Shown here: positions 15,301-17,384 of the stretch, piece after piece | Layout of the letters: each line of letters begins with the position of its first letter | Numbering within the stretch: the first letter of the stretch is position 1 | Assembly (NCBI GenBank): GCA_048938445.1 | Contig: JBHLME010000015.1 | Coordinates: 1 to 49,634, forward strand | Direction of reading: 5' to 3' | Length of the DNA stretch: 49,634 bases | Origin: Promethearchaeota archaeon | GTDB lineage: Archaea; Asgardarchaeota; Lokiarchaeia; Sigyniarchaeales; SOKP01 | The notes under the pieces: model-generated | Told to the model about the DNA's origin: nothing | Database searches by the model: none | The model's input: only the letters and a program-made list of their open reading frames with translations | Translations under genes and position numbers: made by a program

Positions 15301-15828
15301 TCATAGCAATTTAGCATTTTTCATCATTATTTTTGTAATTGCTTCCATAATTACTTGAACATTTTCACCCGTTTTTGAAGAGCATTCTATATAGCCTAGA
15401 AGCTTCTTTTTTTTTGCGAGTTCTATAACCTCATCTGACTCCACTTCACGTTTATCTTCAAGGTCTATTTTTGTACCTACCATTATGATTGGTGCCATGA
15501 ATTCTTCCCTGTTATTAGGATCCTTAAAAAAATCTAACCATTCATTAATTTTATCTAAACTTTTAGTATCTGTAGTATCGAACATAAAAAGCCCTCCTTT
15601 TGCATCCTGTACAAAGCTAGGAAAGAGGATTTTATAGTGTTCTTCACCCGCAAAATCCCATATTTGGAGTCCGACAGTTTTTCCTTCGACTTCAAGAGAT
15701 GTGGTGTGTAAATCAGTACCTATTGTCATTCTCTCCTCTTCATTGAAGACATTGGTTAAATACTTCCTACAGTAACTAGTTTTTCCTACACCGCTATCCC
15801 CAAATATACACAGTTTAAATTTTGTCAT
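15301..15828 (-). CDS. Rab-like small GTPase
   Basis: G1 GDSGVGKTS, G2 TIG, G3 LQIWDFAGEE, G4 TKID, G5 ECSSKTG; 175 aa; no C-terminal Cys motif. Confidence 0.93.
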   Translation of the reverse strand: MTKFKLCIFGDSGVGKTSYCRKYLTNVFNEEERMTIGTDLHTTSLEVEGKTVGLQIWDFAGEEHYKILFPSFVQDAKGGLFMFDTTDTKSLDKINEWLDFFKDPNNREEFMAPIIMVGTKIDLEDKREVESDEVIELAKKKKLLGYIECSSKTGENVQVIMEAITKIMMKNAKLL

Positions 15829-15936: not shown

Positions 15937-16971
15937 TTATTTAACTTCATAAATCCAGTTAAACTCATCCTTGATTTCTAATCGTTGAATTCCAGTCAAC
16001 AGATCATATAATTTCGTAGTTACTTCTCCTGGTTTTCTATTATTGAATATCTTCTCATTTTCTTCGATTTGAACTGAACCTATTGGTGTTATGACAGCAG
16101 CAGTTCCAGTACAAAAACATTCTGTACAAGATTCTTTAAACAATTCTCTGTATGATATTTTTCTTTCTTCTATTCTCAAGTAAAGTTTCTTTTCAGCAAG
16201 CTCTAAAACGCTTTTTAGTGTTATACCTTCTAAGATCGTTCCATCCAGTTGAGGCGTGGTTAGCGTATTATCTATTATAGCACAAAAATTGGCTGCACCA
16301 ACTTCATTGATATATTCTCTTTGAATTGAATCAAGATATAATACTTGAGAAAAACCACGTTGCTTGGCTTCTTTAGCGGGTTTCATTGTTCCTGCATAAT
16401 TACTGCATGTTTTTGAAAAACCCGTTCCACCAGGACTGGAGCGCGTGTATTTCTTACTAATTTCCAAATTAATTGCTTTAAATCCTTCTGGAAAATAAGC
16501 TCCAACTGGAGAAGTGAAGATTATGAATTTATATTCTTCAGCGGGTCGAATACCAAGCATTGGACCACTCCCAATCATTAAAGGTCGGATATATAAGGAG
16601 CCCCCACTCTCATATGGAGGAATATATTCTTCATTTGCCTTTACAACTGTTTTAATCTTTTCCACGAACCTAATAGGATCATAACTAGGCATCATAAGCC
16701 TTTCAGCGCTTTTGTTCAACCTTTTAGCATTTTCGTCTGGTCGAAAGAGCGTGATTTTACCATTCTTTGCTCTTAAGGCTTTCAATCCTTCAAATATCCC
16801 TTGTCCGTAATTCAAGACACATGCCGCGGGTGAGATTTCTATATTCCCTAAAGGAATGATATCTCCTTCATCCCATCTACCATCCTTATAATTTGAAACA
16901 AACATCACTTTAGTCTTTATGAAACTAAATCCAAGATTATAAAAATCTATTTTTTTACTTTCGATTTGCAT
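15937..16971 (-). CDS. ilvE: Branched-chain amino acid aminotransferase (fold type IV PLP)
   Basis: LNYGQGIFEGLKA, LFRPDEN, SLYIRP, SKTCSNYA (PLP Lys), EVGAAN, ILEGIT, TGTAAVITP; SD GAGGT at 16984-16980. Confidence 0.95.
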   Translation of the reverse strand: MQIESKKIDFYNLGFSFIKTKVMFVSNYKDGRWDEGDIIPLGNIEISPAACVLNYGQGIFEGLKALRAKNGKITLFRPDENAKRLNKSAERLMMPSYDPIRFVEKIKTVVKANEEYIPPYESGGSLYIRPLMIGSGPMLGIRPAEEYKFIIFTSPVGAYFPEGFKAINLEISKKYTRSSPGGTGFSKTCSNYAGTMKPAKEAKQRGFSQVLYLDSIQREYINEVGAANFCAIIDNTLTTPQLDGTILEGITLKSVLELAEKKLYLRIEERKISYRELFKESCTECFCTGTAAVITPIGSVQIEENEKIFNNRKPGEVTTKLYDLLTGIQRLEIKDEFNWIYEVK

Positions 16972-17248
16972 TTACTCATACCTCATTTTTTTATTTTCTA
17001 TCTATGTGGCATGACCCCTTGACAAAAACGCAATCCTTCTATGATCTCTTCCATATTAAACTCACGTTCAAACAAGATACTATCCCCATGATAATCATTA
17101 GAGAATAAGAAAAGATATTAAAAGGAGTCGCGATCTTGTTTTATAATAATACTGCTGCTACTGCTGCGATAGCTGCCGCTATAATGGAGCGTGCAAATGC
17201 ATTTACAGCTATTGCATTTTTTCGAGTATTATTAATCGAAGAGATCAT
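16972..17248 (-). promoter_or_regulatory. Structured ilvE leader region (candidate attenuator)
   Basis: Leader ORF, U-rich tract and several complementary segments (17238-17248/17041-17051; 17211-17221/17024-17034; 17101-17132/17029-17063; 17133-17141/17070-17078). Confidence 0.7.
17141..17248 (-). CDS. Leader peptide of ilvE, 35 aa: MISSINNTRKNAIAVNAFARSIIAAAIAAVAAVLL*
   Basis: Hand translation, ATG 17248 to TAA 17141. The last 14 codons are only Ile/Ala/Val/Leu. Not in the ORF track. Confidence 0.8.
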   Translation of the reverse strand: MISSINNTRKNAIAVNAFARSIIAAAIAAVAAVLL

Positions 17249-17271: not shown

Positions 17272-17279
17272 AATATAAA
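17272..17279 (-). promoter_or_regulatory. TATA box for the leader-ilvE transcript
   Basis: TTTATATT 24-31 nt upstream of the leader ATG, the spacing expected for a near-leaderless archaeal transcript. Confidence 0.55.
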
Positions 17280-17384
17280 TATTACGTGTAAAATGGGAAA
17301 GCATACCCACAAAAATATGTCATTTCTTATTCATTGATAAAACCCATACAAATTAAATTAAAAAAAAAATATTAAATTATTTAA

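Follow-up and report, generated by a model that had tools for sequence, protein, structure and literature searches.

Attenuation by translated leader peptides is the textbook demonstration that bacteria couple transcription to translation, and among branched-chain amino acid operons it operates at ilvGMEDA, ilvBN and leu of Escherichia coli. We know of no example from the archaea, and a full-text literature search, with subscription journals and supplementary files outside its scope, found leader-peptide attenuation in bacteria only and no archaeal precedent. In the portions of the reports that we draw on, the ilvBNC operon of Corynebacterium glutamicum is governed by a three-hairpin attenuator (PMC11857589), Deinococcus deserti carries leaderless leader peptides in front of tRNA synthetase and amino acid genes (PMC4007540), and mycobacteria possess leaderless short open reading frames (ORFs) encoding polycysteine (10.1101/834739). 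Here we describe the leader of the branched-chain amino acid aminotransferase gene ilvE in a stretch of 49,634 nucleotides from a Promethearchaeota archaeon (contig JBHLME010000015.1; the whole stretch is referred to as the window). A short ORF, two exclusive RNA folds and a match between leader codons and downstream gene characterise this leader and its relatives, and on these sequence properties the most likely explanation, to which we give about even odds, is that this Asgard archaeon carries here an attenuator of the ribosome-mediated (leader-peptide) kind.

The presumed target gene encodes a protein that scores 424 bits against NCBIfam NF009897 (cut-off 307) and also matches Pfam PF01063. 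Leader coordinates refer to the minus strand, position 1 of the RNA being 17248. A TATA-like box precedes the leader ATG at the spacing that usually separates box and transcription start, and this placement suggests that the leader mRNA is leaderless and begins near 17248. The leader ORF ends at 17141 and is followed by 169 nucleotides (nt) with a Shine-Dalgarno-like motif and the ilvE ATG. The parts of the locus, with the basis of their assignment where one applies, are as follows (MFE, minimum free-energy structure).

17272–17279, minus strand: TATA-like box (TTTATATT), its centre about 27 nt 5′ of the A of the leader ATG, read from the sequence
17141–17248, minus strand: leader ORF of 35 codons plus TAA, MISSINNTRKNAIAVNAFARSIIAAAIAAVAAVLL (ORF list and orthologous ORFs)
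17238–17248, minus strand: segment A, the 5′ end with the AUG (AUGAUCUCUUC), partner of A′ or A″
17225–17234, minus strand: segment B, codons 5–8 (Asn/Thr codons), partner of B′
17144–17185, minus strand: presumed control codons 22–35 (Ile, Ala, Val, Leu), from class-specific composition
17153–17144, minus strand: B′, the last control codons, partner of B
17169–17182, minus strand: local AUAGC-GGCA-GCUAU hairpin within the control codons, from the fold
17133–17141, minus strand: segment C (AAACAAGAU), beginning in the stop codon, partner of C′ or of C″ at the U run
17108–17131, minus strand: segment D, pyrimidine-rich 5′ strand of the long hairpin (MFE)
17123–17120 and 17113–17110, minus strand: two U4 tracts in D
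17070–17078, minus strand: segment C′ (AUCUUGUUU), partner of C
17030–17052, minus strand: segment D′, 3′ strand of the long hairpin
17051–17041, minus strand: A′ (GAAGAGAUCAU) inside D′, partner of A or of the core of D
17028–17024, minus strand: U5 run directly 3′ of the long hairpin
17027–17022, minus strand: C″, UUUUGU, alternative partner of C
17011–17017, minus strand: segment A″ (GGGUCAU), second complement of the 5′ end, in read-through RNA only
16980–16984, minus strand: Shine-Dalgarno-like GAGGU, 8 nt before the ilvE ATG
15937–16971, minus strand: ilvE, the presumed regulated gene (Pfam PF01063; NCBIfam NF009897)

The pairings in this leader are real and not the product of chance. 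The 225-nt minus-strand RNA folds with a minimum free energy of −61.2 kcal/mol as against −46.2 ± 4.3 kcal/mol for 200 dinucleotide shuffles (z = −3.48), and it is more stable than all 200 of these controls, a comparison that an earlier note on this DNA had set as a check; the plus strand of the same region gives z = −2.92. The long pairing that the earlier note had placed just after the leader stop is found in the MFE, where 17131–17108 pairs with 17052–17030 over 21 base pairs (bp) including four G-U wobbles; its count of about 29 bp depends on an outer extension in place of which the MFE has local hairpins. The 3′ strand of the long hairpin ends at 17030–17029, immediately before the U5 run, which had been overlooked. 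The proposed alternative, in which the 5′ end AUGAUCUCUUC (17248–17238) pairs with GAAGAGAUCAU (17051–17041), holds at 11 of 11 positions, and in the 49.6-kb window the exact 11-mer occurs only at these two complementary sites. A companion pairing of 17221–17211 with 17034–17024 is present in the window yet unconserved (52.7% of cells paired, no better than shuffles). Two further predictions stand: the stop-codon segment AAACAAGAU (17141–17133) pairs with AUCUUGUUU (17078–17070) at nine of nine positions and is strongly conserved in doing so, and the local hairpin in the control codons (17182–17169) is present, its conservation being weak (69.6% paired). The first MFE also joined GAUCU at the 5′ end to AGAUC of segment C; this helix, 71.6% paired, lacks covariation and is lost on a change at position 5, and it was dropped. 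Rfam returned no match at gathering score on either strand of the whole window, amino acid leaders, T-box and riboswitches included, and no tRNA or tmRNA was found in the window.

Leaders of this kind form a family. The same type of ORF lies at the same distance upstream of orthologous ilvE genes at seven of the first 30 loci, and two more came from metagenome-assembled genomes. A full-length covariance model built from nine leaders (R1) gives 45 matches in 36 of the 135 genomes of the organism's family and none in 19 genomes from other families of the same order; a sequence-only profile of the 3′ domain built from 39 members (R2) reaches 123 of the 135 family genomes and 13 of 13 genera, with up to three or four family matches per genome. 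A phylum sample of 125 outside genomes produced two marginal R1 matches, both rejected, one being the hydrophobic end of a longer protein and the other a stretch inside a gene, and six weak R2 matches, likewise false, two being protein C-terminal tails and T-rich DNA and four being without a leader-like ORF. No credible member was thus found outside the organism's family, in either the other families of the order or the phylum sample. An nhmmer profile of seven full-length leaders detected the window's own copy alone in its genome, which reflects a limit of sensitivity: R2 later found two more, a Val/Leu-rich leader MVFRNNTSKNTWFARVLGVVLVLVVVLLL before a 45-residue acidic ORF ending in DIAW (C141:32982-33088, plus strand) and a Val-rich leader MLTNNNTKNTLSSVVVVDVVVVLL before an acyl-CoA dehydrogenase gene (C117:18703-18802, minus strand).

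Throughout the family the segments follow one order, A, B, B′, C, D, C′ and A′/D′, with a variable tail that often includes C″ and A″. Two folds can be assembled from them: fold X combines A:A′, B:B′ and C:C′, and fold Y combines A:A″, B:B′, C:C″ and D:D′. A′ has either the 5′ end (A) or D as its partner, and the folds are therefore mutually exclusive. In a structure-blind MAFFT alignment of 19 ilvE-type leaders (A5) we observe fold X to be paired in 86.2% of cells, compared to 34–61% with slid partners, with nine pairs changed on both sides and a covariation of 0.201 versus 0.122, which none of 500 shuffles attained. Fold Y is paired in 79.8% of cells (42–50% with slid partners) and has 13 pairs changed on both sides, a number equalled by two of 500 shuffles, at a covariation of 0.162 versus 0.128. 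Family-wide, in 44 sequences aligned by fitting to the covariance model, 23 of the 35 pairs of fold X have changed on both sides, as against 13.8 ± 1.8 in shuffles (0/500). The individual helices repeat this pattern. A:A′ is 79% paired with four compensatory pairs in the ilvE class and 93% paired across the family, which agrees with the earlier suggestion that the pairing masks the leader AUG; B:B′ is 85% paired, with compensatory changes; C:C′ has such changes at eight of nine pairs family-wide; and A:A″ is 91% paired and co-varies at position 5. By way of example, AUGAUCUC/GAGAUCAU becomes AUGACCUC/GAGGUCAU, and ACAAGAU/AUCUUGU becomes GUAAGAUU/AAUCUUAC or CGAGAAAGC/GCUUUCUCG. Compensatory changes, which the earlier note had recommended looking for in orthologous leaders, occur in both exclusive folds, and judged by this sequence record the two mutually exclusive structures are both under selection.

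The observed geometry of the ORF is tied to these structures. An ATG leader ORF is present at 44 of 44 R1 matches, with a length of 20–38 codons (median 28), and nearly all of 45 listed leaders have a TTTAWATA-type box whose distance from the ATG is constant (by eye, uncounted), the exception being L105, where the upstream ATG that was picked misplaces the anchor. In 36 of 44 leaders helix C opens with its 5′ strand 2 nt past the stop codon's first base, and in 43 of 44 this start lies within −1 to +2 nt.

The codon content of the leader also tracks the downstream gene: Ala, Val, Ile and Leu go with ilvE, Leu with leucyl-tRNA synthetase (leuS) and Val with acyl-CoA dehydrogenase. Downstream genes were named by Pfam and NCBIfam and inspected for 45 plus 65 matches; R2 matches number roughly 230 in all. 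Mean codon numbers over the last 14 leader residues are as follows.

ilvE leaders (n = 18, including one at the end of a contig): Ala 5.6, Val 2.7, Leu 2.0, Ile 1.8
leuS leaders (n = 6): Leu 8.0
leaders of small acidic ORFs (n = 17): Leu 5.5, Val 5.2
acyl-CoA dehydrogenase leaders (n = 2): Val 5.5

Among the 65 further R2 matches, 31 precede leuS, of both archaeal and bacterial type, and their leaders have tails of the ..DLLAVLLL or LLLLL type; five more leuS-like leaders are unconfirmed, an overlapping frame having been taken as the ORF there. Ile/Val-rich leaders (..SIIIVVVLII) stand before a FrhB/FdhB-TrmB helix–turn–helix fusion (L175:367-1821, L200:109-1560, L199:110-1543), and another leader precedes an ABC exporter (L198:461-1900).

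Small acidic ORFs of 41–69 amino acids, ending in ..IAW or ..GYLWKRY.., lie behind the Val/Leu-rich leaders (for example L086:1741-1878, L090:1280-1483, L096:1059-1238, L093:1081-1272). They often occur two in a row, convergent with a gene resembling LL-diaminopimelate aminotransferase; four had no match in Pfam and one no usable match in the Atlas.

How a ribosome would act on the two folds was modelled by constrained folding. At the decision point, with nt 1 to 205–213 exposed and RNA polymerase on U5, the RNA adopts A:A′ (0.98) and C:C′ (0.89) with D:D′ at 0 whether it is free or carries a ribosome stalled at codon 26, and ribosomes on both stop and start bring D:D′ to 0.76–0.96. When the same test was run on 40 family members, with P > 0.5 as the threshold, A′ was on the 5′ end in 28 of 40 in the free and stalled states alike; masking the stop alone placed it on D in 22 of 40, masking stop and start together did so in 34 of 40, and 23 of 40 switch between the stalled and the stop-plus-start state. 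The geometry, which puts a pairing segment in the footprint of the terminating ribosome, and the modelling both point to a fold decided by ribosome position. The earlier note had proposed the same, and its proposal is strongly supported by the conservation, with compensatory changes and over more than 100 loci, of the ORF, its leaderless start, the overlap of stop codon and helix C and both folds, by the match of codons to gene and by the conserved masking of the leader AUG.

The sequences show the ORF, the folds, their conservation and the link of codons to gene; in the following scheme we infer that the leader is translated, that transcription terminates and which sign the response has. Transcription would start at or beside the leader AUG, which means that a ribosome could bind the 5′ end immediately on its emergence. 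In fold X the 5′ end A would pair with A′ and the post-stop segment C with C′; in fold Y the U-rich segment D would pair with D′/A′ into the long hairpin that ends directly before U5. With Ile, Ala, Val and Leu plentiful, ribosomes would reach the stop and cover C while new ribosomes cover A, allowing fold Y to form with RNA polymerase still on U5, where transcription would end intrinsically and/or through the termination factor aCPSF1 binding the free U tract. A ribosome stalled in the control codons, or a lack of translation, would leave A and C free, fold X would form first, the long hairpin would be blocked and the polymerase would continue into ilvE. Plentiful amino acids are hence predicted to favour the hairpin with its free U5 and termination, and stalling or no translation is predicted to result in read-through.

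The proposed output has sequence counterparts in the window and in the genome. The long hairpin followed by U5 has the geometry of a terminator, though a simple terminator scan gives no sites, in keeping with the earlier statement that a compact GC hairpin with a U run is missing. In addition to U5 and the two U4 tracts in D, which together would supply the U-tract signal of an aCPSF1 terminator, the genome encodes an aCPSF1 orthologue (TIGR03675, 875 bits versus a cut-off of 580). In the part of the report used here, aCPSF1, including an orthologue from Lokiarchaeota, binds terminator U tracts and cooperates with them (PMC8716108). Just one U run is kept by nearly all members: it lies in D, 20–35 nt past the stop, with at least four U in 38 of 39 placeable family rows, and it may act in pausing or as a site for aCPSF1, which comes near the earlier suggestion. 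In ilvE leaders that lack the U run, the C″ segment GCGCUUGU pairs with the ilvE start AUGCAAGC at −11 to −12.4 kcal/mol, and in one subgroup with small ORFs CACCUC stands opposite a Shine-Dalgarno sequence GGAGGUG. These pairings indicate that translational platforms exist and that output platforms differ among the leaders, as they do in riboswitch families. For the family as a whole we lean towards a reading that we hold to be somewhat more probable than its contrary, namely that it consists of modular leaderless leader-peptide attenuators in this Asgard family, in which ribosome occupancy of the first and last leader codons would pick the fold. These would represent the first ribosome-mediated attenuation in Archaea, feeding eukaryote-like U-tract/aCPSF1 termination in some members and translational masking in others, and regulating ilvE, bacterial- and archaeal-type leuS, acyl-CoA dehydrogenases and small acidic proteins.

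A few observations concern the surroundings of the leader. An inverted repeat TGGG-N8-CCCA lies at 17294–17309, just 5′ of the TATA-like box, and TGGGAA..TTCCCA repeats occupy the same place in other ilvE-type leaders (L002, L003, L004, L012, L037); the repeat is possibly a transcription-factor operator acting alongside the attenuator. In the window's MFE, UCAUGCC (17008–17014), which overlaps A″, is able to pair with GGUAUGA (16976–16982) covering the ilvE Shine-Dalgarno, a pairing seen in this window alone and in none of the relatives looked at; by this model, the Shine-Dalgarno would be released from UCAUGCC once the 5′ end pairs with A″. Directly downstream of ilvE is a gene for a Ras/Roc-family small GTPase (15301–15828, minus strand), which fits an Asgard genome. 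In the genome collection searched, the best relatives of the window's IlvE are Asgard proteins (65–80% identity), followed by Bacteroidota proteins at 36–41%.

Several points weigh against the attenuator as we have drawn it. A look through sequencing runs turned up no RNA run that contains the locus. With the whole leader exposed, fold Y wins at equilibrium for every ribosome position (D:D′ 0.76–0.97), from which it follows that the switch must be kinetic. With the stop masked alone the window's RNA stays unswitched, A:A′ remaining at 0.97–0.98 to nt 213 and persisting until nt 217, and only 12 of 40 members switch under that mask. Only 10 of 18 ilvE-class leaders, as read from alignment A5, and none of the first six leuS leaders have a run of at least four U behind the hairpin, so termination at that site cannot be the universal output; moreover, archaeal polymerases terminate at oligo-T with no need of a hairpin. 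The codon evidence has its own limits. Within the hydrophobic tail, B′ is constrained by its pairing with B, such that only codons upstream of B′ are free to vary, and the Ala excess in ilvE leaders is not accounted for. Codon sensing leaves unexplained a set of weak members of the type M.FSHHNTT..W.GYKRAFIP..VL, which share the RNA scaffold without a run of any single amino acid and precede another small acidic ORF (L090, L091, L093 and L103, as second, weaker matches, and L178, L179, L190, L194 and L195). The related genomes are, furthermore, not independent samples. As to metabolism, no dihydroxy-acid dehydratase (TIGR00110, PF00920/ILVD_EDD) was detected in the genome, which is 96.5% complete; ilvE may consequently serve catabolism, and its induction by starvation cannot be taken for granted. 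The genome contains ilvC, only a sub-threshold acetolactate-synthase-like gene, sub-threshold aconitase-type genes and two ilvE paralogues (C71, C111), of which one alone has the leader.

An alternative retains the sensor and changes its output or sign, such that efficient leader translation, with amino acids plentiful, would switch the gene on and stalling would switch it off. A ribosome close behind the polymerase could suppress termination, or the access of aCPSF1, at the U tracts of D; or fold Y could free a downstream start region that fold X leaves masked. The near-universal U run does lie in D (38/39 rows), where a ribosome at the stop would, by the presumed geometry, abut a polymerase on that run, and the translational platforms (GCGCUUGU with the ilvE start AUGCAAGC; CACCUC with GGAGGUG) offer the second route. 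The lack of any ILVD_EDD dehydratase match at 96.5% completeness, the members that precede acyl-CoA dehydrogenase, a catabolic type of enzyme, and the fermentation of amino acids by cultured Asgard relatives would all suit a gene induced by plenty. We nevertheless regard the opposite sign as unlikely, albeit a serious contender: the hairpin and U5 of the window predict termination under efficient translation, ilvC is present, and leucyl-tRNA synthetase is normally induced rather than repressed by amino acid shortage, as with the bacterial pheST attenuator and T-box.

Explanations that dispense with ribosome sensing altogether fare less well. The leader could encode a functional small hydrophobic peptide, or constitute a structured 5′ untranslated region serving stability, processing or protein binding; the leaders are hydrophobic throughout in their C-terminal halves, the conserved palindrome 5′ of the TATA-like box suggests additional protein-based regulation, fold Y is the equilibrium structure and some members have no amino acid runs. 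Yet the peptide is poorly conserved outside the stretches fixed by B:B′, where compensatory changes alter the residues, its composition follows the downstream gene, and a hydrophobic run of some 15 residues would be short for a membrane helix. The lock of the stop to helix C and the conservation of two exclusive folds add to the case against this explanation, which we consider decidedly improbable. The occurrence of conserved alternative structures before aminoacyl-tRNA synthetase and amino acid genes might also be expected of an RNA that senses a ligand or tRNA directly, in the manner of a riboswitch or T-box, with the ORF incidental. Such an RNA would leave unexplained why the ORF starts at the predicted transcript start and why the stop is locked to helix C; the window has no Rfam match at gathering score, and alignment A5 reveals no conserved unpaired pocket apart from the pairing segments. 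We give this explanation very little credence.

Were the leader-peptide attenuator to prove correct, coupling would be shown to be exploited for regulation in Archaea, among the closest prokaryotic relatives of eukaryotes. The leaders would provide a natural system in which to learn how RNA structure and ribosomes modulate termination by U tracts and aCPSF1, a source of small parts that respond to amino acids, and a way to approach what the co-regulated small acidic proteins do.

Set beside known systems, the family combines familiar traits with others of its own. The Leu-rich leuS leaders suggest that a synthetase gene is controlled from its 5′ leader by sensing of the cognate amino acid, as in the E. 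coli pheST attenuator and T-box leaders; T-boxes, however, read the tRNA directly and need no ORF, and none matches in the window. Unlike the trp attenuator, an untranslated Asgard leader would read through. With the bacterial branched-chain attenuators of E. coli and, as far as the portions of the source used here describe it, of C. glutamicum (PMC11857589), the Asgard leader shares a short ORF with runs of Ile, Val and Leu codons, exclusive hairpins, a hairpin with U run before the gene and a stop placed so that the terminating ribosome covers a pairing segment. It departs from them in its archaeal host, in a leaderless ORF that would itself provide, with its 5′ end and AUG, an arm of the antiterminator, in its many Ala codons, in a long, AU-rich and branched putative terminator stem whose U run is absent from many relatives, and in the lack of an Rfam match. 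With the Deinococcus and mycobacterial leaders, in the same partial sense, it has in common a transcription start, predicted in the Asgard case, that coincides with the leader start codon and codons cognate to the downstream synthetase or pathway; those leaders are bacterial, and the passages used here do not mention for them a switch in which the 5′ AUG segment pairs with a complement downstream (PMC4007540, 10.1101/834739). Termination by archaeal aCPSF1 (FttA) would be the likely counterpart of the output, the U4 and U5 tracts being the probable signal and the factor being encoded in the genome; the terminators described in the parts of those reports used here are constitutive or operon-internal (PMC8716108, PMC10450193), whereas the Asgard one is proposed to be hidden or exposed by a translated leader. 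By analogy, then, the element looks like a leader-peptide attenuator in the way it works, new in its domain of life and in its use of the mRNA 5′ end as a switch arm, and with a termination step that we propose.

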